Assembly: GCA_016186365.1 (NCBI GenBank)
Contig: JACPLT010000001.1
Location: 13,231 to 77,230 of the forward strand
Direction of reading: 5' to 3'
Length of the DNA stretch: 64,000 bases
From: Candidatus Pacearchaeota archaeon
Lineage (GTDB): Archaea; Nanobdellota; Nanobdellia; Pacearchaeales; GW2011-AR1
Position 1 is the first letter of the stretch; each line of letters starts with the position of its first letter. Made by a program: the position numbers and the translations under genes. The notes beneath the pieces are model-generated. The model worked only from the letters and a program-made list of their open reading frames with translations, did no database searches and had not been told where the DNA came from. This document shows, piece after piece, positions 2,801 to 54,754 of the stretch.

Positions 2801-4261
2801 TTATATTTCACTAAAAACTTCCTGTTCAGGATAGACAGTTATCCCATTATCAGAAATAGTAACAGCCACAATTTTCTTTTGATGATTCTCTCCCCTCATT
2901 TTCAAAACTTCTATTCCTTTTTCTCTTACATCTCCTCTCTTGAAATTATAAAATACAATTACTCCATCTGCCAAGAATTCTTCAACTCCTGTCTGTGAGA
3001 ATATTTTAGGAATTTGTTCAGTCTCTGTAATAAGTAAATTAGTTGAGCCAAGCTTTTCAAAAAATCTAAACAACTGCTCAATATAAATTCTATAGCTATC
3101 TTCTTTTCCAGTAAAAGCCGATGCAATAGCAGTAAGTGAATCAATAGCAACAAAATCAGGTTTAAAATCAGTAGGCATTATTACAGGATCAATATCAATT
3201 AATAGTTCCCCTTTTTGCTTAGCAAGAAGAGCATCAACATTTCTTGTAATATCAAAGGGATTCATTCTCTGAAGTTTTAACTTTCCTTTTTTTATTAATT
3301 CTTTTGGATTCCAACCAAATTCTTCCATATGCTCAATTAATCTGTCCTCACTTTCCTCAAAGCTCATATAATAGCATTTCTTGCCTTCATTTGCCTTATT
3401 AATAAGTGTTTGAAGGCAAAATATTGTTTTTCCACTTCCAGCACCACCTGCAACAAGCACACTACATCCCTTAGGAATTCCAAGACTAAATAAATCATCA
3501 AATCCAGGAACACCTGTTTTTACTCTTTCCTTTACAAACCTTGTATCTTTTTCATTCATATTCTGAATAACATGTAAAGCAGGAGCTCTTTGCTCTTTTA
3601 TCTCAGCTTCGTGAGGTTCAATCTTCCCACCCTTTAATTCAGCCTCAATTTCAGATTTTATAGAAGCCATGTCGAATTTAGTATTTTTTGCTTTACCTTT
3701 ATTTTCTTTTTTTTGCTTAGAAGCAGCAAACTCTGCGTACCTATGGTCCTCGATTCCAATATGATTTACAAGCCACTCTCCAAGAAATTTTCTTGCCTTA
3801 TCAACTAATTCTTTTATTTTTCCAGAAACAGGAGCTTTAGAAGAAAAAGCTAATTTTAATTCTTTTTCATAATTAATATAAAATTTAACAAAACTTCTAT
3901 GCATTTCCTTGTGCTCTTCAAGTCCAGGAAAATTAATTTTCTTCATATAGTTTTCTTCATAAGAAAAATTTTCTTTGACATAACTCTCAAAAAAACCCAT
4001 TATCTCTCTAACCAAAGCCAAACTAGCAAAAGATTCCTCTGCTTTAATTAATTTATTAATATATTCAAAAAGTCTTTTATGTTGATTATCAATTTTTTCC
4101 TCATGAACCGAAAGTTTAGAAGTCCAAACAAATTCTTTCCCGGGATTAATACTTATGTTTTTTTTAATATCTTGCTTTTTTAATTTAATAGAAATCTTAT
4201 CCTTTTCTTCCTTTTTTTTAGATTTCACCTCTGTCTTTTTCTTCACCATCTTTTTTACCAT
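2801..4261 (-). CDS. hemerythrin-domain / KaiC(RecA)-like ATPase fusion protein
   Basis: N-terminal Lys-rich tail, then a bacteriohemerythrin-like signature (WTSKLSVHEEKIDNQHKRLFEYIN; ENFSYEENYM...HKEMHRSF; EWLVNHIGIEDHRY). C-terminal RecA/KaiC core with Walker A VAGGAGSGKT and Walker B FVAIDSLT. Confidence 0.65.
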   Translation of the reverse strand: MVKKMVKKKTEVKSKKKEEKDKISIKLKKQDIKKNISINPGKEFVWTSKLSVHEEKIDNQHKRLFEYINKLIKAEESFASLALVREIMGFFESYVKENFSYEENYMKKINFPGLEEHKEMHRSFVKFYINYEKELKLAFSSKAPVSGKIKELVDKARKFLGEWLVNHIGIEDHRYAEFAASKQKKENKGKAKNTKFDMASIKSEIEAELKGGKIEPHEAEIKEQRAPALHVIQNMNEKDTRFVKERVKTGVPGFDDLFSLGIPKGCSVLVAGGAGSGKTIFCLQTLINKANEGKKCYYMSFEESEDRLIEHMEEFGWNPKELIKKGKLKLQRMNPFDITRNVDALLAKQKGELLIDIDPVIMPTDFKPDFVAIDSLTAIASAFTGKEDSYRIYIEQLFRFFEKLGSTNLLITETEQIPKIFSQTGVEEFLADGVIVFYNFKRGDVREKGIEVLKMRGENHQKKIVAVTISDNGITVYPEQEVFSEI

Positions 4262-4300: not shown

Positions 4301-4843
4301 TTACTTTTCTTCAATCACCCTATCACAAAACTGAGAAAGCCTGGAAATCATTTCATCATCAGTTTCTTTTTCTAAAGAAATTATTGTTCCCGAGCAATTC
4401 CATTCTTTCATCTTATTTATAAGAAAATGAGAAAACTTTGTTACACTTCCAGTATTATTATAAAAAATTAAAGTTGAGATAGAATCTAAGAATAATAGTC
4501 TATTGTCAGCAGGCAAGCTATTTACTGCACTTGTAGCTGCTATTGAAATATCTGTTAATCCTCGAGGACTTCCTATAAAAATCGCATTTTCCGCTTTTTG
4601 TGTTTTAAAAGACGCAGGGGTTATAGCGTCTATAAAAAAAACATTTTTTGTGTTTATCCTTTCTTGCTGTAAAAGTTTCATCAAAGCCGCATAAGGTTTA
4701 TTTACACTAATATAAACACAATTGTATTTTTTATTATTAATATAATATTTCAGAATTGCGAGATTTGTAATGACATACTTCTTAGCAGAAGTAATAACCA
4801 AAGAAATTTCCCCCTCTTTTAATTCAGAAAATTTTATTACCAT
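4301..4843 (-). CDS. KaiC-like (RecA-fold) protein with degenerate P-loop
   Basis: Paralogous to 12254..12781 and 13222..13749. Retains hhhhDS (LLFLDSIST) but has no GxxxxGK[ST]. Its start ATG overlaps the upstream stop (TAATG at 4841-4845). Confidence 0.55.
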   Translation of the reverse strand: MVIKFSELKEGEISLVITSAKKYVITNLAILKYYINNKKYNCVYISVNKPYAALMKLLQQERINTKNVFFIDAITPASFKTQKAENAIFIGSPRGLTDISIAATSAVNSLPADNRLLFLDSISTLIFYNNTGSVTKFSHFLINKMKEWNCSGTIISLEKETDDEMISRLSQFCDRVIEEK

Positions 4844-5664
4844 TAATACTTACCAACTTTTCTGTTATTTTTAAACTTTGATTCCACTAAAGAGCTTAAT
4901 GATGCATGCGAACTTTGAAGAAGAATATTAAATGCATTTGCCAACTCCCCGATCTCATCTTTTGATTTTTTTAATTTGGTAGGAATCTTTACATCAATAT
5001 TTCCAGAGCCGATATCTTCTGCTATTTCTGTAAGTTTATTGATTGGATTTATCACTCTTAAAAAGAGAATAGAAAGAGCGATTATAACAATCAATAGTTC
5101 CAGCCCAATCACCAAAAATGTAGTGTTTGAGACAGAGCTCAAAATCGCATTGTCCTCTTCTTTTAATATTTCCGAATGCTTGCTGTCAAGGTTCAAAGAA
5201 ATAGTTGAGCTTTCAAAAACATCATCAAAAAGACTATCTGTAGGTATACCTGATTTTCCAGAAAAGTAATCACCCAAAGCGACTGATAAACTTTGAGCAT
5301 CTGATAAAGTTTTCTTGTGTGCACTAAGTTCTTCTGAAATCTCAGTTTGTGTTCTTTTTGACTCTCCATTCTCTATCTCAGAAACAATTTCGCCAAACCT
5401 CAGCACATTATCATTATAGAAAGTATAAAGCTCTTGGTTATGAATAAGGGGGGTATTATTCTCATTTAAATCTGCCTGGAGATGCGCAGAAAGTCCTCTG
5501 ATATTTGCTTCTATCAACACGGCATCGATATTACTTCTTAGAGCAATGTTAATATTCTTCATTGAAGAATTATTCTTCAAAACAAACACAGTTTGAACTG
5601 AAAAAAACACAATAAAAACAATTGATATAACAATAAAGATATTTCTCAATTTCATCTCAAGCAA
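4843..5664 (-). CDS. membrane sensor: 2 TM + periplasmic domain + HAMP, no kinase domain
   Basis: N-terminal TM, about 170-aa extracytoplasmic segment, second TM followed by a HAMP-like amphipathic region (INPINKLTEIAEDIGSGNIDVKIP...DEIGELANAFN). Confidence 0.55.
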   Translation of the reverse strand: MLEMKLRNIFIVISIVFIVFFSVQTVFVLKNNSSMKNINIALRSNIDAVLIEANIRGLSAHLQADLNENNTPLIHNQELYTFYNDNVLRFGEIVSEIENGESKRTQTEISEELSAHKKTLSDAQSLSVALGDYFSGKSGIPTDSLFDDVFESSTISLNLDSKHSEILKEEDNAILSSVSNTTFLVIGLELLIVIIALSILFLRVINPINKLTEIAEDIGSGNIDVKIPTKLKKSKDEIGELANAFNILLQSSHASLSSLVESKFKNNRKVGKY

Positions 5665-5826
5665 TTCCCCCTATTTTTTTCACTTTCTTTTTCATGTTTA
5701 ATATAATAAATCTACTTATTTAAATGCATCTAATCTTTGAGCTGTAAAGTTAAAGGGAGCTAAAAGTCGGTTTGTAGGATTAAGCCATTTAGAAAAATTT
5801 ATAATTAAAGTTCGATTTACTTTAAT

Positions 5827-6195
5827 ATGAAAAAGGGAACATTTCACAATAAATGGTATTTTCGATTGCTTCAAGTAATATTTTTGGGATTTTTCATATT
5901 CTTTATAATTGTAGGTATTCGGGGTATTTTTTACAGAGAGGGTGAGCCATTTGTTGGATTCATCTTCGCAGGCATTTTAGCTATCGTGTACTGGCTAATC
6001 ATGAGAAATAAAGGCTCAATGGGTGGTTTTGTTTTTGGTGTGATGGTGGGTCTTCTTTTATTATTTATAATATCTAAACTTAATCCGGGGGACGAAATAG
6101 CTGGAATAGTGATATTTACCTTATTATTGAGTGGATTATTTTTTGCATTTATAGGTTACTTGATTCAAAATAATTCTTGGAAGAAAAACAAGTAG
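5827..6195 (+). CDS. small membrane protein (4 TM, 122 aa)
   Basis: Hydrophobic helices; no motif. Confidence 0.4.
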   Translation: MKKGTFHNKWYFRLLQVIFLGFFIFFIIVGIRGIFYREGEPFVGFIFAGILAIVYWLIMRNKGSMGGFVFGVMVGLLLLFIISKLNPGDEIAGIVIFTLLLSGLFFAFIGYLIQNNSWKKNK

Positions 6196-6292
6196 CTCGT
6201 TAGAAAAGGTTACCTTTTTGGCCTATTTATTTATACCAAACACCCGCTTACTTTACAGCTCACTAATCTTGATTCAAAACATCATCTCAATA

Positions 6293-7858
6293 TTATTTAT
6301 TTTTTTTCTTTGTTCCCTTAACAAGTTTATCAACAACATCTTTAGCTTCATAGTTCTTAGAAATTGAAGTTAGATTTTCCTTAGATATCTCTCGTATGAA
6401 AGCAAAACCCCCGATTATATTTCCTTTTATATCTTTAATAGGAGACGCTCTGATAACTACTTTTATTTCTTTTCCATTTTTTTTAATAATTGTTATTTCA
6501 AACTCTGATGCCTTACCAGATAGGGAAGTTCTAATACCTGTTTCTGCAAGTTTCAAATCTTTTTTAGCAGTAATATCTGCAGGACTTTTCTTCATTAATT
6601 CTTCTTTATTGCTATATCCAAGAATTTTTACCATAGCTTGATTCACATCTTTTGTATTTCCATTTAAGTCTATTACCCATAATCCCTCGCCCATAGAAGC
6701 AAGAATCTCTTTATTAAATTGTTCAGTTTCCTCTTTCGCTTTTATTATTTCTCCTAATCCAATATCCTCTTTAGAAATTCCTGTCCTTAAAATAGCAAGT
6801 TTCATTGAAGCTAGAATTCTATTAAATGAATCTATCAATAATTGAACTTCATCTATTGTGCTTTTTCCAAGCTGAACATCTAAATTTCCTTTTGTTATTG
6901 AAACAACGTCTGCTGATAGCTTTTCAATCGAATTTGTAATTCCTTTTGAGAAAACCAATATTAAACCAACCATAATTAAAATGCTTATTATTATAGAATA
7001 CACCATAACCATTAAAATATTACGCTGAATCTTAAACACTTTATTTGATGGTTCAAGATAAACAATCACACCATAATCCAACTTCTTAAAACTCACAACA
7101 TCACTTTCAAATATAAATGTTTCAGATAGTATATTATTTTTAATTTTATTATTTATTAACTCAATAAGTTTATCATGTTTTTCAGCAGGATTAGATTTGT
7201 CTAAATTATTTCTCGTATCTATAGTGAGATTTCCTTCTCTGTCTAGAAAGAGAGTATGACTTTCTTTATCTGAATCAATAAGTCCATTAAAGAGGGAATT
7301 GAGCGAGATAGAAGATAGAACAAACCCCTCCATTCTGTTTTGAGAGAAGATTGGCACATTAACTGTTATAGCAGGTTTATTATCCACTAAGCTTATGAAA
7401 GAAGCAGAGACATATGGCTTTTGAGTTTTTAAAATTCCCTTGCAATAATCCCTATAAGTAAAATTAAGGTTTTTTAAATTAGGTATTGAATTAGTAACTC
7501 TTTTGTCAGCAACAATTACCTTGCAATTCTCATCCATTATAGACATAGTTTGGAATAAATTACTTGATCCGACTATTACATCAAACTCCTGACTTATATC
7601 ATTCAAAGTTTCATTATCCGGATTAATCGTGACTTTGATGTATTTTTCATCGTTTGCAAGATTTTGAAGCCTGCCCATAACTGTATCAAGATACACTTCA
7701 ACTATTTTAGATTTAGTTTCTATAATCTTTTGAGCTACAACATTTTGACTTTCTACAACAATCTTCTTTGTTATAATCCCCACAGATATAACCAGAAACA
7801 GTGAAACTAAGAGGAGTGAAAGTATGATTATTATCATCAATTTTATCCTTAATTTCAT
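6293..7858 (-). CDS. membrane sensor protein: Cache-like extracellular domain + HAMP + C-terminal PAS, no kinase output
   Basis: N-terminal TM, about 250-aa extracellular region, second TM (MVMVYSIIISILIMVGLILVF), HAMP-like linker, PAS-like C-terminus (GEGLWVIDLNGNTKDVNQAMVKILGY...). No H-box or HATPase motifs. Confidence 0.55.
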   Translation of the reverse strand: MKLRIKLMIIIILSLLLVSLFLVISVGIITKKIVVESQNVVAQKIIETKSKIVEVYLDTVMGRLQNLANDEKYIKVTINPDNETLNDISQEFDVIVGSSNLFQTMSIMDENCKVIVADKRVTNSIPNLKNLNFTYRDYCKGILKTQKPYVSASFISLVDNKPAITVNVPIFSQNRMEGFVLSSISLNSLFNGLIDSDKESHTLFLDREGNLTIDTRNNLDKSNPAEKHDKLIELINNKIKNNILSETFIFESDVVSFKKLDYGVIVYLEPSNKVFKIQRNILMVMVYSIIISILIMVGLILVFSKGITNSIEKLSADVVSITKGNLDVQLGKSTIDEVQLLIDSFNRILASMKLAILRTGISKEDIGLGEIIKAKEETEQFNKEILASMGEGLWVIDLNGNTKDVNQAMVKILGYSNKEELMKKSPADITAKKDLKLAETGIRTSLSGKASEFEITIIKKNGKEIKVVIRASPIKDIKGNIIGGFAFIREISKENLTSISKNYEAKDVVDKLVKGTKKKNK

Positions 7859-8502
7859 ACTTCATCTCCTCCAATAATATAAAGGGCAATTCCTACTAAA
7901 ACAAAAAGAATAGAAGCATTTAATGCTAGAGCCTTACTAAAACCTTCAAAAGAATAATAAAGAAAGGGCTGACTGATAGCATATCCAATAAGAGCAATCG
8001 CGGAGATTACTACAACAATTACTCCCAACATTCTAATCGCTTTAGATTTTAAAGGGAAAAACCATAGAAAACCCGCAATTCCTATTAAAATAAAGTTAAT
8101 AATCGCTCCAATTGAAGGCATTCCTGGAGAGACAGTTTTTACCGCTCCAGATGCCTCATTTATAAAAGTATTTTCAATTCCAAGACTAATTCCTAAAAAA
8201 GAAGATATAAGCAAAAGCCCCATGATTAAAATTATCAACGTTAAACCAATCAGAACAATAACATTATTCAAATCCATATTCCCAGAAATCTTTAACATAA
8301 ACAAAAGCATTATCCCGGAAAATAAGAAAGAAACTGCTGCCAAAAACCTCATCTCAACCATTCCAGGAAAAAAGCTTTTTAAGATTGGAATGTTAAAAAT
8401 CCATCCAAAAATAACAACTACAGCACTTATTATAACAATTCCTGCAATTATTCTTACAGCAAGCTGTTTATTGTTTGATTGTTTATTTATTTTTTCACCC
8501 AT
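7855..8502 (-). CDS. multi-pass membrane protein (215 aa)
   Basis: 6-7 hydrophobic helices. 4-nt overlap with the downstream sensor gene. Confidence 0.5.
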   Translation of the reverse strand: MGEKINKQSNNKQLAVRIIAGIVIISAVVVIFGWIFNIPILKSFFPGMVEMRFLAAVSFLFSGIMLLFMLKISGNMDLNNVIVLIGLTLIILIMGLLLISSFLGISLGIENTFINEASGAVKTVSPGMPSIGAIINFILIGIAGFLWFFPLKSKAIRMLGVIVVVISAIALIGYAISQPFLYYSFEGFSKALALNASILFVLVGIALYIIGGDEV

Positions 8503-12253: not shown

Positions 12254-12781
12254 TTAATTATTAGATTTCTGCGCGGTATCAATAACTTTATCGGCATAAG
12301 TTTGCGCTTTCTTTATAATTTGCTGCTGGTCTTCAACATCCAAGACTAAGAAAATTGACCGAAGATTTTCTACAGATTTCATATCATTAATAAGACTTGA
12401 AAAAAACCTTTCAACGATAATATTAGAGTTATATGTTGAAAGATTAGTTATAGAATCAAAAACAATAAAATCAAACTCCTGATTTAATATCTTTTTTATT
12501 GCTAAACTCAGTTCAGTTAAAGAAGAAGGAGACGAAAGAAAATAACATCTATCAGAAGAATTAACTTTTTTCATAGAACCAGAAATAGCATCAAGATAAA
12601 AAAAGTTTTTTTCACTTATTTTTCTATTTTTAAAAAGCTCTTCTATTGCGGGCCAGGTTTTATTATAGCTTATATATAAAACTCTCTTTCCACTTAGGCT
12701 TTTTCCAATATCTGTAGTTACTTTTCCGTAATCTAATGAATGTATTAATACAAGATTTGTTTTGTCAAATTTAAATCCCAT
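12254..12781 (-). CDS. KaiC-like (RecA-fold) protein with degenerate P-loop
   Basis: Walker A position reads HSLDYGKVTT (no Ser/Thr after the Lys). Walker B-like FIVFDSITNL retained. Abuts the upstream receiver gene (stop/start adjacent at 12781/12782). Confidence 0.55.
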   Translation of the reverse strand: MGFKFDKTNLVLIHSLDYGKVTTDIGKSLSGKRVLYISYNKTWPAIEELFKNRKISEKNFFYLDAISGSMKKVNSSDRCYFLSSPSSLTELSLAIKKILNQEFDFIVFDSITNLSTYNSNIIVERFFSSLINDMKSVENLRSIFLVLDVEDQQQIIKKAQTYADKVIDTAQKSNN

Positions 12782-13150
12782 TTATTTTTTCTCCAAAATC
12801 TTATTAACTCTTTTTAATAAATCCGAATTATCAAAGGGCTTTTGAATATAATCAACTATATTTTTGCTAATTTTCAACCCTTCCTTCTCAGCATCACTCA
12901 TTCTCACAACACTTAAAAAAGAAATCTTGACATCTTTAGAAATTTTAGATATCATCTCCCTTACTGGAGTTCCAGGCATCATGATATCCAATAGAATCAA
13001 ATCCGGCTTTTCTTTCTTTAATTTCTTTAAAGCATCATCAGCATCAACACAAAGAATTACCTTATATTTATTTTTCTCAAGAAGAAGTTTCATAGTTCTC
13101 CTTATATCCTCTTCATCATCTACAACCATCACTATTTTTTGTTCCGACAT
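12782..13150 (-). CDS. stand-alone CheY-like receiver
   Basis: IVMVVDDEED...DLILLDIMMPGTP...DYIQKPFD. Confidence 0.85.
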   Translation of the reverse strand: MSEQKIVMVVDDEEDIRRTMKLLLEKNKYKVILCVDADDALKKLKKEKPDLILLDIMMPGTPVREMISKISKDVKISFLSVVRMSDAEKEGLKISKNIVDYIQKPFDNSDLLKRVNKILEKK

Positions 13151-13221
13151 ATTAACTTCCTTTTATTGTTTAACCAACTAATAATCGAGAGTTTATAACC
13201 TCTGAGTATTATCAGATTAGA

Positions 13222-13749
13222 TTATTCTCCCAAATCAATAACCTTATCCACAAACATTCCGCTTTCTTTTATCAAAGCTTCCTGTTCTTTTACTGAAAGA
13301 GCATAAAAAATTGCTTTGGTTTTGCTTTCTTTAATCTTATTAACAAGACTTGCCACAAATTTTGAAACAGGCGCCTTGCTCTGATAAACAAGCAAATTAG
13401 TCAAAGAATCAAATATAATATAATCAAAATTATGCCTGACAAACTTTGAAATAACCAAGGAAATTTCAGTTAATGCTCCGGGAGAAGAGCAATAATAAAC
13501 CCCTTCTGATTGGTCTGGAACATTCTTAATTGTCTTTGAAATAGCATCAACAAAAACAATGCTCTCTGTTTTAATCTTATTTTTCTTAAAAAGTTCAACT
13601 AAAGAATCCTTTGTTTTATTCAAAGTTACATAAGCTATATTACTTTTAGACAATTCTTTGACTATGTCTACTATTTCTTTATTATAGTCTGCACTAGACA
13701 TAATTAAAAGTATTGTCTGGTTATTAGAAAGCTCTTTTTTTATGTTCAT
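13222..13749 (-). CDS. KaiC-like (RecA-fold) protein with degenerate P-loop
   Basis: Paralog of 12254..12781. SSADYNKEIV replaces the P-loop; YIIFDSLTNL retained. Confidence 0.55.
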   Translation of the reverse strand: MNIKKELSNNQTILLIMSSADYNKEIVDIVKELSKSNIAYVTLNKTKDSLVELFKKNKIKTESIVFVDAISKTIKNVPDQSEGVYYCSSPGALTEISLVISKFVRHNFDYIIFDSLTNLLVYQSKAPVSKFVASLVNKIKESKTKAIFYALSVKEQEALIKESGMFVDKVIDLGE

Positions 13750-13751
13750 TT

Positions 13752-14105
13752 CTATGCTCCAACAAATTTTTTTACTTGTTTAACCAAATCATCTATATCA
13801 AATGGCTTTTGTATAAACCCGACAATATTCTTGCTCTTCATCAAGTCGCCTCTTTCAGCTTCCGAAGTTCTTACAACGGAAAGATAAGCTATCTTTGTTC
13901 CTATCATTTTTGGAATTATTTCTCTTACAGGAGTTCCAGGCATCATTATGTCCATTAAAACCAAATCAGGTTTTTGCTTTTGCCATTTTTTTAAAGCGTC
14001 ATCGGCGCTTACTGCTGTAATGACATTATACCCATTTCTTTCCAAAATTGCTTTAACAGTAGTTACATTGTCAGGCTCATCATCCACAATCATTATTGTT
14101 TTCAT
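13752..14105 (-). CDS. stand-alone CheY-like receiver
   Basis: IMIVDDEPD...DLVLMDIMMPGTP...GFIQKPFD. Confidence 0.85.
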   Translation of the reverse strand: MKTIMIVDDEPDNVTTVKAILERNGYNVITAVSADDALKKWQKQKPDLVLMDIMMPGTPVREIIPKMIGTKIAYLSVVRTSEAERGDLMKSKNIVGFIQKPFDIDDLVKQVKKFVGA

Positions 14106-14178
14106 TTTATTCTTCCTAAGCTTTTAAAATGAAAAGCCTGAAAATCTTCAATTTTCTTGATTTTTGCCATATTGATCT

Positions 14179-28327: not shown

Positions 28328-31300
28328 ATGGCAACAGCAAAAGAAGAGATAAAACTTAAAGTAGTAGAAGCACTGCAAGATGATGCGTATAAGGGGATTG
28401 CAAGAGTTGACCCCGAAATAATGAGAAAGTTAGGGCTGAAAAGAGGAGACATTGTTTCTATTAAAGGGAGCAGGGAGAGTGTTGCGATTGTTGATAGAGC
28501 GTATCCTGCGGATATAGGCGAGAATATAATAAGAGTTGACGGAATTATAAGAAAAAATGCTAAAACTGGAATTGGAGAGGTGGTGGTTGTAGGACGGGCA
28601 GATATTAAAGAAGCTAAAAAAATTACAATTGCACCTGCACAAAAAGGAATCATGGTTCAGGGAGACCCAGAAGCACTAAAGCCAGGATTATTGGGGAGAG
28701 CAGTTGTCAAGGGAGATATAGTTGTTTTGGGCGGGACAGCAAGAAGAAGAGATATAATGTCTGATATGGATTTATTTAATGATATTTTTGCAGAAGCTTT
28801 TTCTGGAATGGGTGGAATGGGAGGATTTGGAGGATTTTCAGCTTCAGGAACTAAATTTATGATTGTTTCATGCAATCCCACCCAGCCTTGTATCATAACT
28901 GAAAATACTGAGATTACGCTTAATCCTAAGGCCATGGATATTTCAGAAGATAAGGTTTTTGAAGTTACATATGAAGATATAGGGGGATTGGATGAAGAGC
29001 TTAAAAAAATAAGAGAGATGGTAGAACTGCCATTAAAACATCCAGAGATATTTGAAAAGCTGGGAATAGAGCCGCCAAAAGGAGTGTTGTTGCACGGTCC
29101 GCCAGGAACAGGAAAAACTTTACTTGCTAAAGCAGTTGCAAATGAAGCAGAAGCGAATTTTATCTTATTGAATGGGCCTGAAATAATGAGCAAGTTTTAT
29201 GGGGAGAGTGAAAAAAATTTAAGAGATAAATTTGACGAAGCTGAAAAAACTGCGCCTTCAATTATTTTTATTGATGAAATTGATGCTATCGCTCCAAAAA
29301 GAGAGGAAAGTTATGGGGAAGTTGAGAGAAGGGTTGTTTCTCAGTTATTGACTATGATGGATGGGCTAAAATCAAGAGGGAAAGTTGTGGTAATTGGAGC
29401 AACTAACAGACCGAATTCAATTGATCCTGCTTTAAGAAGGCCCGGAAGATTTGACAGAGAGATAAGCATTAATGTTCCGGATAAAAGAGGAAGGCTGTCT
29501 ATACTTAAAATTCATACGAGAAATATGCCTATTGAGCCTCCAATTAAAAAGGATTATCTTGAAAATCAGATACAAACACTATCGCAGAAAAATAAAGAGC
29601 TTGAACTAGTTATTAAATTAGAAAATGATAGCGAGCTAAAAAAACAAAAAATGCAGGAATTTTTTAACAATAAAGAAGAGATAAATTATCTTCAAAAAAT
29701 CAGTGATAAGTTTAGCGGGGAAGAGAAGAAAGATGAGAAAACATCCAAAGATTTAACACATAAAGAACAAGAAACTGCAATTAATATTTTTAGAAATGGA
29801 GTGTTAGATGAACTCGCAGCAATAACTCACGGATTTGTCGGGGCAGATTTGTCTTCTTTGGCTAAGGAGGCTGCGATGAATGTTTTAAGAAAAATACTTC
29901 CTAAGATTAAGATGCAGGACGGAGAAGAAATTCCTAAGGAGATTCTTGAAAGTTTGAGAGTGACTAAGAAAGATTTTATGGAAGCTTTGAGAACAGTTCG
30001 GCCTTCTGCTATGAGAGAGGTTTTGGTTGAAACTCCCAATATTAAATGGGATGATGTTGGAGGGCTGGGTGATATTAAGCAGGAATTAATAGAAGCTGTT
30101 GAATGGCCGATGAAATTCCCAGGAAGTTTTACAAGAATGGGGATAAGGCCCCCAAGAGGGATATTATTATATGGGCCACCAGGAACAGGAAAAACTTTAT
30201 TAGCTAAAGCAGTTGCAAAGGAGAGTGAAGCTAATTTTATTCAGGTTAAGGGGCCTTCTTTGCTGTCAATGTGGGTTGGCAAAAGCCTTCCCTATAATGA
30301 AGAGTTGATTGTTAAAGAAAATGGGGCGGTAAAAAAGATGAAAATAGGGGAGATAGTTGAGAAAAGAGCAGACGTGGAAATTCTTGCTTTTGACAAGGAT
30401 AAAAAGATAGCATTTTCCAGAATAGACGATTATATCAAACATAAATTAGATACTAATTTACTTGAAATAACCACAAGAACAGGGAGAAAAATAAAAGTAA
30501 CAGATTATCACTCTTTATTTTCATTTATCAACGGCAAATTTACAGATATCCCTGCAAGCCATTTAATAGCTGGAGAAAGTTATATTGCAATCCCTAAAAA
30601 TTTGAATCTTCCTAAGGATAGGATAAAAAATGTTAATTTATATAACTATTTTAAAAATGATGAAACTATATTTTTAGCCAATATTAAAGATTATCTTATA
30701 AGAGCAAAAAAAATATTGGGATTGGGAAGAACTGCAGAATTAATGGAAGTTTCTAAAAAGTATTTGGCAGATATAATCCTGAAAAATCTTCCTGTAAAAA
30801 TAACTAATTTTGAAAATTTGATAAACGAGGCAAAATTAGCTCTTGATTTTAATGATATAAAAATTAAATTGAAGGGAAGCATAAACGAATATCCTGCAAT
30901 ATTAAATATAGATAATGATTTTTGGAGATTAATCGGGTTATGGGTTGCAGAAGGGGATTTTAACAGTTCTACAGTTAGAATTCACAATACAAACAATGAG
31001 ATTAGGGAGGATATAATCAGAATTTGCACAAAATATAAGTTTAGTATATCTGAAATGCCTACTTGCATCACTATAAATTCGTTATTTTTACAAAAAATAT
31101 TGGAAAGGGTGTTTGAATTATTCTCTGGCTCGGATGCTAAAAGAGTTCCTGCTTTATTATTTACTTTAGACAAGGGAAGCAAGGCTAATTTTTTGAAAGG
31201 ATATTTCAGCGGTGATGGCTCAATTTATCCTGCTGAAAATGGAAAATTTAAAATAGAAGCAAGCACCATAAGCAAAGAACTCGCTAACGATTTGATGTAT

Positions 31301-32374
31301 TTATTTTTAGATTTTGGGATTGTTGCCACTTGCTATGAAAAAGAGCTAAAAACCGGAAGCACTTGTTATAGAATCAGCATTTTAGGAGTAAGAAATTTTG
31401 AGAGATTTAGCGAGATAGGTTTTATAGAAAATCAGAAAAATAAAAGAATTATGGATTATGTTAATTCTAGAAAGTGGAATAGGTCTGACGTTATTCCTTT
31501 GTCTGGCGAGCTTTATGAGCTAGCTTCTCAAAGTCAAAGTGTTTATTCAACTAATAAGTCTATAGGAAAAGAGGCGCTAAAGAACATGCTGATTTTGATA
31601 GACAAAGATAAAAGTAGATATAAAGAATATTGGGAATTAGTTGAAGGAGATTTATTTTTTGATTTAGTTAAAGAAGTAAAAATAATTAATGCTGAAAATT
31701 ATGTTTATGATATATCTGTTCCGGCAGGGCAGAATTTTATTGCTGGTTTTGGAGGAGTAATTGCCCATAATAGTGAAGAAGGTGTCAGAAAAATATTTGA
31801 GAGAGCAAGACAGGTAAGTCCATGCATCATATTTTTTGATGAAATTGATTCTCTTGCTTCTAGGAGAGGCGCGGATGCTGGGGGAGGAAGAGTTACTGAG
31901 CAGGTGTTAAATCAGTTGTTAGCTGAAATGGATGGATTGGAAGAGCTGAATAATGTTATTGTAATTGGGGCGACTAATAGGCCGGATATGCTTGACCCCG
32001 CTATATTAAGGCCTGGAAGATTTGACAGAATTTTATTGGTTTCAACTCCTAACAAAGAAGGAAGATTGTCTATACTTAAAATTCACACAAAAAATATGCC
32101 TCTTGCAAAAGATGTAGATTTAGATAAGATATCTGAACTGACTGAAGGTTATGTTGGTGCGGATTTGGAGAGCTTGGCTAGAGAGGCGGCTATGCTTGCT
32201 TTAAGAGAGAATAAAGATGCAAAAGAGGTTACAAAGAAAAATTTTGAGGATGCCATGAAAAAAGTTAGACCTTCTGTAAGCAAGCAGCTGATTGATAAAT
32301 ATAAAAAGATAGAGGAAGATTATCTTAAGAATGCCAAGGCGGCGATTGAGAAAGAGGCGCAGTATTTAGGATAA
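28328..32374 (+). CDS. cdc48: CDC48/VCP-like AAA+ ATPase (N domain + D1 + D2) carrying a 496-aa intein in D2 and a roughly 90-aa insertion in D1
   Basis: Two [15 protein letters not shown] Walker A motifs and DEID Walker B motifs. N-domain RGDIVSIKG. Second-region-of-homology motifs [16 protein letters not shown] present twice. Confidence 0.9.
30284..31771 (+). mobile_element. intein (496 aa) with LAGLIDADG homing-endonuclease domain inside cdc48 D2
   Basis: Host sequence WVGK|SLPYNEEL...GGVIAHN|SEEGVRKIF. Removal restores the conserved WVGxSE..REIF. Block B TDYHSL, LAGLIDADG blocks [11 protein letters not shown] and [12 protein letters not shown], and terminal HN followed by Ser(+1). Confidence 0.8.
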
Positions 32375-52793: not shown

Positions 52794-53064
52794 TCAATCT
52801 TAATAGCAGTTAAACCTTTAGAAAAGGTTTCCAAACTATCAGTTAAAGTCGCTTTTCGACTTTAACTGCTGTTGGAGCCTCTCCGCAGGTACCCAACCGT
52901 CGTATTTCGCTATGCTCAATACAACTTGCAACCATAAAGGTTGCCTTTCTCCAACTGCTCAAATTCTTTTATCAATCTTAATCGCAGTTAAACCTTTAGA
53001 AAAGGTTTCCAAACTATCAGTTAAAGTCGCTTTTCGACTTTAACTGCTGTTGGAGCCTCTCCGC
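52794..53064. repeat. two copies of a roughly 93-bp direct repeat (52794..52886 and 52972..53064, 1 mismatch) each containing a 12-bp-stem hairpin
   Basis: tcaatcttaat(a/c)gcagttaaacctttagaaaaggtttccaaactatcagttaaagtcgcttttcgactttaactgctgttggagcctctccgc. Copy B overlaps the last 14 codons of the HerA-like gene. Confidence 0.85.
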
Positions 53065-54754
53065 CGTGCCAGGTGAACTTGGGGCGGACTCGCATGGGAT
53101 AAATTCTTTCTGAATTGTCGTCGAGAATAATTGCTGAGCCCTTTAAACTCGGAAGTTCATCCATATATTTGTTTATGCTTGAATAAACATAAGACTGCAT
53201 TATTTCATTTAGTGCCTGAATATCCGGAAGGGCAGTAACTCTATGAGACAAGATTATATCTGCTTGTGTTATTGCATCTTTTGCAAGAGAGCCGGGCTGT
53301 TGTGTGGCCATAACTAGGCTTATTCCTGGCTGCCTTCCCTCTCTTAATAACTGGATTAAAGCATCTGTTGCAGGAGTTTTTCCATCATTGGGCAGGAATT
53401 CGTGAACTTCATCAATAAAAATCCAGACAAGAGGCATCTCCCTCTTTTGCTTGAATGAAAGATAGTCAATCCCATGCTGAACTGCCTGAACTTCTTCTGT
53501 TTTTCTTGACAGCATTCTTTCCTTGAAAAGCTTTTTTGATATCAAACTTATAACTAGAGCGCGAACATTAAATGCCCCTGTCGAGGAATACATGCTCAAA
53601 TCAAGAACTGAAGTTTCTCCTGCTTTTATCAGTTTGGAAATTTCTGTTTCCTGCTCTGAAAACACTTTCCAGGAATCTGCTGCTTCAAATAAACTTGAAG
53701 CAGAGTTTCTTGCATCAATTGTTGAGCTGTGTTCAGAATCTATTTTTTTAATTATGTCTTTTATTGAAAAATTTAGATTTTCTTCTTTCAGCGTGTTTAT
53801 CACTTTTTCTATCAAAACAGCAACTGGCTCGGTTATAGAGAGATTAAAAGTTGTTATCCAGTCTTCTGATTCCAATTCTTTTGGAGAAATTGAAAACTTT
53901 TCATCAACAGGAATCCCTCTTTTTTCATAATCTTCAAAATATCCCAATGGAATAAAAATTTTTACAGGCGTCTTTTTAGGCTTAAGTTTCCATTCTTCCA
54001 GCAAATCTTTTTCTTTTTCATTTTCGAATTTCATTGTCCAGAATACTCCCATTGTATCCAGTATAAGCCCTGCAATGTTTTCTCTTTCCTCTTGAGGCAG
54101 AGTTGCGAGTTCTTCTGCTATTACTCCCAGAGAATAAGACTTTCCCGAATTATGTGAAATAATTCCATTAGCAATAAATGAATGATTTTTATCTACAGAT
54201 AAATCATAAACTTTTTTTATCCCCTCTATAATTTTTATATTTTTTATCCTAACAGGAAATAAATCTGTAAAATTATTATTAACTGATATTAATTTATCTC
54301 CTTTATTTAATTTTTCTGCTTCCATCCATAGAAGAGATAACAATTTTTCTCCAGAAGTTATCAGCAGGGGGTGCTCTTTTGTCAGCTGCAGTTTTCTGCC
54401 GTCTTCTAATTCTATTTCTATAAGATTTTCACTTATAGGGTATTCTAATAACTCTGCATTTTCCCATTCAAACTTTTTTTCATCTTTGTTGAAAGAGAGA
54501 ATTTTGTTTTCTTTGTTAAAATCTTTTATCGGTAAATATCCTTTATCGGTAAAGATAGATGTTCCTTCAGTCAGACATCCTCTTTTTCCTGAAACCAGGA
54601 CTACATGGCTTCTTGCGATGTCCATATAAATCGGATTTGACAGCGAAGTATACTGCCCCATTTTTACGAAACCTTTTCCTAGATAAATCAACCCTCTTTT
54701 TTCGAACCTCTTTTTGTCTGAAGAATCTCTTCCTATGATTATATCATATGGCAT
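53021..54754 (-). CDS. HerA/DUF87-family P-loop ATPase with a mini-intein inserted in the Walker A motif
   Basis: VLVSGKRG|C...HN|SGKSY; splicing gives GKRGSGKS. Downstream WIFIDEVHEF (Walker B) and QQPGSLAKDAITQADIILSHRV, typical of HerA/DUF87. Confidence 0.7.
   Translation of the reverse strand: MPYDIIIGRDSSDKKRFEKRGLIYLGKGFVKMGQYTSLSNPIYMDIARSHVVLVSGKRGCLTEGTSIFTDKGYLPIKDFNKENKILSFNKDEKKFEWENAELLEYPISENLIEIELEDGRKLQLTKEHPLLITSGEKLLSLLWMEAEKLNKGDKLISVNNNFTDLFPVRIKNIKIIEGIKKVYDLSVDKNHSFIANGIISHNSGKSYSLGVIAEELATLPQEERENIAGLILDTMGVFWTMKFENEKEKDLLEEWKLKPKKTPVKIFIPLGYFEDYEKRGIPVDEKFSISPKELESEDWITTFNLSITEPVAVLIEKVINTLKEENLNFSIKDIIKKIDSEHSSTIDARNSASSLFEAADSWKVFSEQETEISKLIKAGETSVLDLSMYSSTGAFNVRALVISLISKKLFKERMLSRKTEEVQAVQHGIDYLSFKQKREMPLVWIFIDEVHEFLPNDGKTPATDALIQLLREGRQPGISLVMATQQPGSLAKDAITQADIILSHRVTALPDIQALNEIMQSYVYSSINKYMDELPSLKGSAIILDDNSERIYPMRVRPKFTWHGGEAPTAVKVEKRL
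54149..54577 (-). other. mini-intein (143 aa, no endonuclease domain) in the P-loop of the HerA-like ATPase
   Basis: Begins CLTEGTSIF (block A), TKEHPLL (block B), ends NGIISHN followed by Ser(+1). Too short for a homing-endonuclease domain. Confidence 0.7.

Follow-up and report, generated by a model that had tools for sequence, protein, structure and literature searches.

We analyzed a 64,000-nucleotide stretch of the genome of a Candidatus Pacearchaeota archaeon (assembly GCA_016186365.1, contig JACPLT010000001.1, positions 13,231 to 77,230 of the forward strand; hereafter the window), which carries a gene for the unfoldase CDC48 whose second ATPase domain is interrupted by a long in-frame insert with the features of an intein. 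The whole protein scores 1037.5 bits against TIGR01243 (CDC48), for which the cut-off is 802.65, and Pfam identifies in it CDC48_N, AAA in three separate stretches and AAA_lid_3 twice. It thus has the organization of the CDC48/VAT/p97 family, in which a CDC48 N domain precedes two AAA domains of the classic clade (D1 and D2), with a score above the family cut-off. A protein search with the spliced exteins returned as its top match the GenBank record MBI2629514.1 (P0039), which is 100% identical to the precursor over 1348 amino acids (aa) and is labelled only “AAA family ATPase [Candidatus Pacearchaeota archaeon]”. The coordinates of all features are given in Table 1.

Positions 30284 to 31771 of the window consist of 496 stop-free codons that read SLPYNEEL...GFGGVIAHN, with ...SMWVGK upstream and SEEGVRKIF downstream. 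With a slash marking each junction, the arrangement is WVGK/SLPY...AHN/SEEG, within D2 and between the Lys and the Ser of WVGKSE. An earlier annotation made from the letters alone (the sequence-only reading) had proposed a 496-aa insert here, in D2 of CDC48 between these two residues; translation of the one open reading frame (ORF) showed its coordinates, length and junctions (WVGK/S...HN/SEEGVRKIF) to be exact, and the TIGR01243 score bears out the host. When the 496 residues are removed, D2 aligns end to end and without gaps with the D2 domains of Thermoplasma VAT (E-value 3.5e-168) and human p97. In this alignment of the spliced domain the insertion point falls between the equivalents of p97 E554 and S555, and the intein lies 29 residues past the end of Walker A and 18 residues ahead of Walker B. 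The Trp at VAT W541 and p97 W551 is what we take to be the aromatic residue of D2 pore loop 1. Judged from the alignment, then, the intein site is directly after D2 pore loop 1.

The host sequence is uninterrupted in close relatives. We read the DNA at the corresponding position in six intein-free orthologues (L083, L084 and L165-L168) from Pacearchaeota and Nanoarchaeota genomes, and all six had an uninterrupted WVGKSE at the D2 site. Across the site, L083 agreed with the predicted product of splicing at every one of 20 residues, and L084 differed from the same 20-mer by two. The insertion is in frame, and its removal gives back the host sequence of intein-free homologues. The sequence-only reading had expected excision to restore the canonical D2 segment, and this part holds; its description of that segment as following the P-loop-proximal helix can be refined to D2 pore loop 1. 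It had also recommended looking for empty sites in related archaea. Among the best 120 matches of the spliced-extein protein search (about 64-85% identical), the intein was present in only four, while the remaining 116 were 756-910 aa long with the site uninterrupted. Intein-free orthologues are shorter by exactly this segment, not equally long. The distribution is sporadic, with empty sites in close relatives.

The Lys at position -1 was considered as a substitution linked to the intein, and this was rejected: MWVGKS occurs in 97 of 118 close orthologues, of which only very few contain an intein. Since MWVGKS is the norm of the clade, Lys(-1) belongs to the host, and after splicing the protein should show the WVGKSE of its relatives. 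The paralogous site in D1 is empty in the window, and its DNA is identical to that of the D2 site at just 34 of 60 positions.

Table 1. Features of the CDC48 precursor gene and its predicted intein (window positions; residues of the intein are numbered from Ser1; counts refer to 78 aligned inteins)
Feature	Position	Strand	Description
CDC48 precursor gene	28328..32374	+	single ORF, 1348 aa plus TAA stop; N domain, D1, intein-interrupted D2
N-extein, 652 aa	28328..30283	+	CDC48 N domain, D1, and D2 through pore loop 1 inclusive
D1 paralogous site, empty (SKFYGE/SE)	29189..29212	+	position filled by related inteins in other archaea
D2 Walker A (GPPGTGKT)	30173..30196	+	gapless alignment to VAT D2
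D2 pore loop 1 (SMWVGK), extein -6 to -1	30266..30283	+	Trp aligned to VAT W541 and p97 W551
Predicted intein, 496 aa	30284..31771	+	HINT splicing domain split by LAGLIDADG endonuclease with accessory helical regions
Block A, Ser1 nucleophile	30284..30325	+	TIGR01445; S1 (30284..30286) in 78/78
Block B, T73-D-Y-H76 (TDYHSL)	30482..30520	+	T73 and H76 in 78/78
LAGLIDADG motif 1 (block C), LIGLWVAE223GD, aa 216-226	30920..30961	+	position 223 acidic in 75/78 (E 74, D 1)
Block D region, Lys286	31133..31162	+	K286 in 77/78; aligned with ENKRIPEFVF of PI-PkoII
LAGLIDADG motif 2 (block E), LKGYFSGD311GS, aa 304-313	31190..31225	+	LAGLIDADG_3; D in 77/78, E in 1 (partly by construction, see text)
Blocks F and G, VYD476IS, H495, N496	31697..31771	+	TIGR01443; D476, H495, N496 in 78/78 (block G partly by construction, see text)
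C-extein, 200 aa	31772..32371	+	begins at Ser+1 nucleophile; holds D2 Walker B and lid
D2 Walker B	31826..31849	+	within C-extein

Besides the insert, the protein has a Lys/Glu-rich segment of about 97 aa in the lid of D1, after HTRNMP (29531..29821 of the forward strand, CDC48 aa 402-498; GC fraction 0.278). In most relatives the corresponding loop has about 12 residues; among the close orthologues, 65 have a loop of 11-13 aa, 34 one of 82-103 aa, and two one of about 160 aa.

Splicing and endonuclease equipment of the insert

Several profile searches identified the insert as an intein, with scores that chance would not produce. Pfam Intein_splicing covers it entirely (E-value 4e-23), with LAGLIDADG_3 in its middle (E-value 1e-21), and the TIGRFAM models of the N- and C-terminal ends of inteins both score above their cut-offs (TIGR01445, 44.2 vs 24.5 bits; TIGR01443, 28.4 vs 15.6). 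The best sequence match in PDB was the intein PI-PkoII (2cw7; E-value 8.7e-31), with both halves of the HINT domain and the endonuclease aligned, and with the alignment reaching the C-terminal ...NF.AGFG..AHN. The next matches were inteins of TFIIB, VMA, RadA and CDC21.

The predicted structure agrees with this assignment. An AlphaFold2 model of the intein, built on an alignment of ten allelic relatives, had a predicted local distance difference test (pLDDT) of 91.6 and a predicted template modelling score (pTM) of 0.90. Its top matches in PDB, searched with Foldseek, were inteins with homing endonucleases: 2cw7 (E-value 9e-33, template modelling score 0.75), TliVMA (7qss), PI-PfuI (1dq3) and PI-SceI. 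Lower in the list came free-standing LAGLIDADG enzymes and mini-inteins, each matching its own sub-domain. Over the HINT part, the model superposes on the mini-inteins 5o9i, 6rpq and 7oec with root mean square deviations of 2.0-2.4 Å, and the predicted pseudo-dimeric alpha-beta-beta-alpha-beta-beta-alpha core of the endonuclease matches I-DmoI, I-Tsp061I and the endonuclease domains of PI-PkoII and PI-PfuI.

To these matches conservation can be added. We aligned the window intein with 77 full-length relatives (n=78; 33-72% identical) obtained in the genome scan described below. Since the scan used the patterns L[KG]GYFSGDG and GFGG[VI][FIL]AHN, conservation at motif 2 and block G in Table 1 is partly by construction, while conservation at the other positions is independent of the patterns. 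The residue at +1 (31772..31774 in the window) is Ser in 79 of 80 loci and Thr in one. All the elements of a class 1 intein are found in sequence, namely Ser1 of block A, TxxH of block B, the Asp of block F, His-Asn of block G and Ser+1, and each of the two LAGLIDADG helices ends in an acidic residue (Glu223 and Asp311). The splicing blocks listed in the sequence-only reading (Ser1, TDYHSL, the terminal HN and Ser+1) and both LAGLIDADG blocks were all recovered; it had pointed to blocks F and G as the place where a failing intein would give itself away, and there Asp476, His495 and Asn496 are present. We conclude with high confidence that the insert is a class 1 intein with a nested two-motif LAGLIDADG homing endonuclease, located in D2 of the CDC48/VAT unfoldase of a member of the Pacearchaeota (DPANN archaea). 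Going by its residues and its modelled fold, the intein is probably splicing-competent.

In VMA inteins, the acidic residues of blocks C and E are lost in an inactive endonuclease (PhoVMA) and kept in an active one (TliVMA) (PMC8966425). As they are kept here, by the same criterion the endonuclease looks active; overall, we put present activity at slightly better than an even chance.

The equipment suggests the following course of events. The 1348-aa precursor would be translated as one piece; Ser1, helped by Thr73 and His76 of block B, would perform an N-O acyl shift at the Lys(-1)-Ser1 bond, and Ser+1 would attack in a transesterification. Cyclisation of Asn496, helped by His495 and by Asp476 of block F, would release the intein, and an O-N shift would link the exteins into a CDC48 of 852 aa. 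The D2 core (Walker A, pore loop and Walker B) and the translocation pore would be unable to form before the intein is removed. Cleavage of intein-less alleles, whether by the free intein or by the precursor, is predicted around ATGTGGGTTGGAAAA/AGTGAAGAAGG, the predicted target, reconstructed as the intein-less homing site, being CCTTCTTTGCTGTCAATGTGGGTTGGCAAAAGTGAAGAAGGTGTCAGAAAAATATTTGAG; through repair of the double-strand break, the cut allele would acquire a copy of the intein.

The position of the intein also raises the idea of a post-translational switch, in which splicing conditional on redox state, temperature or substrate would gate the active D2 pore and so regulate the CDC48 unfoldase. 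The site is a critical one, as it abuts pore loop 1 and separates Walker A from Walker B. Strong purifying selection acts on the intein, and conditional protein splicing is documented for other inteins such as those of RadA and DnaB. However, none of the evidence is specific to regulation: selfish inteins generally insert at the most conserved motif, Ser1 and Ser+1 offer no redox handle, and 116 of the 120 close orthologues manage without an intein. We consider such a co-option very unlikely.

The pore-loop-1 intein family and its possible mobility

A protein search with the intein alone returned 38 proteins. The better half were AAA ATPases with the intein at WVG[EKD]/S...HN/SE, from Woesearchaeota, Nanoarchaeota, Diapherotrites and Methanosarcinales. 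We then have the results of a scan of one genome per GTDB species, in which 174 genomes, mostly of DPANN archaea, had a relative of the window intein and 80 loci were kept; the sample is biased toward endonuclease-containing inteins. No stop codon interrupts any of the 80 loci, and in all of them HN is followed by Ser (Thr in one). Ser1 is present in all 78 loci that can be read from residue 1. The inteins are 480-538 aa long, save two that are clipped at a contig end.

All 80 kept loci are at the same motif, either in D2, in D1 or in another tandem-AAA protein. The D2 site is occupied in 45 loci, mainly from Woesearchaeota, Pacearchaeota, Nanoarchaeota and Iainarchaeia, one metagenome-assembled genome (MAG) of Bathyarchaeota, and Methanosarcinales/Methanoxibalbensis. 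The D1 site ([FWY]YG[QE]/S...HN/SE..L[RK]..F..AEK) accounts for 22 of the 78 classified loci, in Aenigmatarchaeota, Woesearchaeota and Methanosarcinales. A further 11 loci have the intein at the same motif in a Micrarchaeota protein. In this last group (L075, from JAHJCT010000027.1, and ten similar loci) the intein is found at SQWYGE/S...HN/SEKNV in the first AAA domain of the host, which in L075 is a 1396-aa stop-to-stop ORF with an N-terminal multi-pass membrane region and two AAA domains, an architecture unlike that of CDC48.

Taken together, the members in CDC48-type ATPases of DPANN and some other archaea (L003-L082, P0001-P0026) share with the window copy the site (...[WFY]xG[EKQD]/S...HN/SE...), the length, the invariant residues and 33-72% identity. 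There is no difference in kind between them, and the window copy is one member of the family. Public records name them “AAA family ATPase” or “LAGLIDADG family homing endonuclease”, and in many cases the gene model is truncated.

In a neighbour-joining tree, the inteins split first by site (D2 versus D1 and other) and then largely by host taxon. The window intein groups with inteins of Pacearchaeota and Woesearchaeota. Two D1 inteins of Methanosarcinales (L077, L082) nest among those of Woesearchaeota (L074, L080), which could reflect mis-binning, or transfer that involved DPANN archaea and a lineage that may be their host. Three contigs with an intein-containing AAA ATPase come from MAGs labelled as bacterial (L045, Chloroflexi; L059, Bacteriovoracaceae; L078, Falkowbacteria). 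The intein of L045 clusters with those of Iainarchaeia, and the three contigs are probably mis-binned archaeal DNA.

The codon of the +1 Ser differs between occupied and empty sites. It is AGY in 44 of 48 occupied D2 sites vs 9 of 25 empty ones (Fisher p ~1e-6, uncorrected for phylogeny), and over all sites in 72 of 80 occupied vs 24 of 54 empty. AGY and TCN serine codons are not interconverted by any single synonymous change, so the bias fits co-conversion of the flanks during homing, or a target preference that spares TCN alleles; as relatedness does not enter into the test, it is only suggestive. Among the empty alleles, L083 and L084 have TCA or TCT at +1. The patchy distribution, the clustering by insertion site, the intact endonuclease and the +1 codon pattern are all signals of mobility, and from them the intein is possibly mobile.

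A number of points weigh against recent mobility or limit the reading as a whole. We infer both splicing and DNA cleavage from sequence and predicted structure, and the conservation of D311 and of H495/N496 was partly built in by the scan patterns. The nearest intein relatives are no more than 72% identical, with no sign of recent transfer. In the group of Woesearchaeota, Pacearchaeota and Nanoarchaeota the identity among inteins (58-72%) is close to that of the flanking CDC48 (55-80%), and within each site the intein tree largely tracks host taxonomy. The GC fraction of the intein (0.300) is near the window average (0.318), the exteins being higher (0.376-0.387). Among IMG/VR viral contigs we found no allelic relative; the inteins found there are distant, at 20-29% identity. 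Shared descent could account for the +1 codon association, and a largely similar picture would arise if the intein had long been inherited vertically and was lost now and then.

Most of these observations fit an intein that still splices while its endonuclease has ceased to home. Such an intein would be an old passenger handed down vertically, its patchiness due to rare precise deletions, and it would be retained because imprecise loss would wreck an essential pore loop. The near-extein level of identity among the closest relatives, a within-site tree that mostly follows host taxa, the background composition of the intein and the lack of a close viral relative that could serve as vector all speak for it. 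However, an idle endonuclease normally decays, as PhoVMA, having lost its acidic residues, illustrates (PMC8966425). Here nearly all of the 78 relatives, which span several phyla, have retained the acidic residues, Lys286 and the full LAGLIDADG core of about 180 aa, and apart from the two at contig ends the 80 kept loci are full-size, in a sample that favours endonuclease-containing inteins. The D1 inteins of Methanosarcinales among those of Woesearchaeota, with the codon bias, suggest transfer with co-conversion. We regard loss of homing as a tentative possibility.

Two related explanations were tried and rejected. A recent foreign origin indicated by composition was dismissed, as it is the exteins that are GC-rich for the window and the intein that is ordinary. 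A viral vector was dropped, given that the IMG/VR scan turned up no allelic relative. Many of the distant intein matches in IMG/VR sit on giant-virus contigs.

A second CDC48 intein site lies six residues upstream of the first, so that in some genes (L026, L059, L060 and P0016) two inteins flank the pore-loop hexapeptide. In L026 (Pacearchaeota, JACRHU010000080.1, upstream of position 3001) the additional intein is a 465-aa LAGLIDADG intein in D2, arranged as GPSLL/C...LLHN/SMWVGK/SLPY.... In L059, L060 and P0016 it is a shorter intein in D1 without LAGLIDADG motif, at GPEVM/CVDG...LHN/SKFYGE/SLTPDE.... The six-residue spacing can be compared with the neighbouring inteins described in PMC10643990.

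The family occupies one and the same motif of D1, D2 and a membrane-anchored paralogue with tandem AAA domains; together with the second site six residues upstream and the host-level conservation, this could mean that the pore-loop-1 inteins are more than selfish elements. DPANN archaea might use conditional splicing at the translocation pore to switch their main unfoldase on and off, or the endonuclease might jump between the D1 and D2 sites within one gene. We think this unlikely, and favour an ordinary, possibly mobile intein.

Comparison with known inteins

The closest known relative, PI-PkoII (intein 2 of the Thermococcus kodakarensis DNA polymerase, 2cw7), is like the window intein an archaeal intein of about 500 aa, with a two-motif LAGLIDADG core and accessory helical regions. 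The two share the ...KR.P... of block D and the C-terminal ...GFG..AHN. They are only 22% identical, however, and the host of PI-PkoII is a family B DNA polymerase, not an AAA+ unfoldase. Its insertion site and presumed DNA target are unrelated to those of the window intein, for which endonuclease activity is predicted. TliVMA (7qss), PhoVMA (7qst) and PI-PfuI (1dq3) have the same architecture of HINT, LAGLIDADG and accessory regions (Foldseek E-values 2e-22, 6e-16 and 4e-19, respectively). TliVMA, an active endonuclease, and the window intein both retain the acidic residues of blocks C and E (PMC8966425), whereas PhoVMA lost the catalytic aspartates that correspond to those kept here. The inteins of the VMA-b site differ in their host, the A subunit of the V-type ATPase, and in having Cys1, where the window intein has Ser1.

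The inteins of MCM/CDC21 and of the small subunit of RFC (6rpq, 6rpp) likewise interrupt an AAA+ ATPase core at highly conserved motifs (PMC4760082). Similarity of the window intein to CDC21-1 inteins at the level of HINT is weak. RFC-S inteins interrupt the P-loop and further ATPase motifs of their host, a replication protein (PMC4760082), and MCM also belongs to replication. In contrast, the window intein lies after pore loop 1 of a classic-clade AAA unfoldase, which is not part of the replication and repair network from which intein hosts predominantly come. The main text of PMC10710043 reports an intein in the CDC48 ATPase of Anaeramoeba ignava BMAN, with inteins at the orthologous site in prokaryotes, and states that most such eukaryotic singleton inteins have no obvious endonuclease. 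The host family is the same as in the window and the organism is eukaryotic; the likeness is drawn by host, as the insertion position is not given in that main text.

The sequence-only reading had suggested that the insertion site may be undescribed, and this was borne out in part. Our search of the available literature, including the main texts of PMC10710043 and PMC4760082, found no paper that describes a CDC48 pore-loop-1 intein site, and there is no NCBIfam model of an intein-containing CDC48 among the matches of the precursor, even though Tes, GyrA and RtcB each have an “exception” model of this sort. On the other hand, the allele is present in 174 genomes, MBI2629514.1 is a public record, and a CDC48 intein is listed in the main text of PMC10710043. 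By its mechanism and its architecture the window intein is of an ordinary archaeal type, that of PI-PkoII, PI-PfuI and TliVMA. What is distinctive is the unfoldase host, the pore-loop-1 site, and an allele that is common yet unannotated.

None of this changes the current understanding of inteins or of CDC48 function. It provides a well-populated intein family outside replication and repair, whose paralogous D1 and D2 alleles and six-residue pairs suit studies of site specificity and of interference between neighbours. A possible tool may also be found here, as a cysteine-independent intein with Ser1 and Ser+1 from source organisms that are probably mesophilic, and possibly a new LAGLIDADG specificity.

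Gene models and other inteins

The NCBI gene models of intein-containing CDC48 genes are frequently too short. In the two loci L001 and L002 the models span 6001..8178 and 5981..8056, compared with ORFs of 4408..8178 and 4400..8056; the models (P0001 and P0012) begin 5-29 residues ahead of the intein and leave about 1.6 kb of coding sequence unannotated. Judging by the gene calls alone, P0002, P0004, P0009 and P0019 look similarly truncated, and P0014 begins inside the intein. P0001, P0012 and the similar gene calls are labelled only “AAA family ATPase”, and none that we saw is flagged as intein-containing.

Some genes in Nanoarchaeum are split, and the gene calls of many homologues have their start 3-29 residues ahead of the intein, as a CDC48 split at the intein would. 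We rejected this because the ORFs of L001 (1256 aa) and L002 (1218 aa) are uninterrupted; being continuous, they identify the short models as annotation artefacts. The same models, which resemble broken genes, and the origin of the window from a MAG might suggest instead an assembly chimera, or a pseudogenised CDC48 with a non-splicing HINT-like insertion. But the 1348-aa ORF is continuous and all catalytic residues are intact, the same architecture recurs stop-free in 80 independently assembled loci, and the truncated models are annotation errors, as just described. With a negligible probability left to it, the notion of an artefact or dead gene is effectively refuted. A profile of the pore-loop-1 allele would correct mislabelled CDC48 records in DPANN genomes.

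Other inteins were noticed as well. In L001 (Woesearchaeota, JACQMS010000037.1) a GyrA gene with its own LAGLIDADG intein (12572..14178) is found 4.4 kb from the intein-containing CDC48, which suggests that these small genomes carry several inteins. The window itself has a second one, a 143-aa mini-intein without endonuclease (54149..54577, reverse strand) inside an ORF at 53021..54754 of the same strand (Pfam Intein_splicing, E-value 8e-13; DUF87, E-value 9e-8). It begins with Cys1, ends in ...ISHN/S and splits the Walker A motif of a HerA/DUF87-type ATPase, GKRG/C...HN/SGKS. In the homologues P0027, P0028 and P0033 the intein is three residues further on, GKRG[ES]GK/C...HN/SYT, and this offset indicates two distinct insertion sites in the same P-loop.

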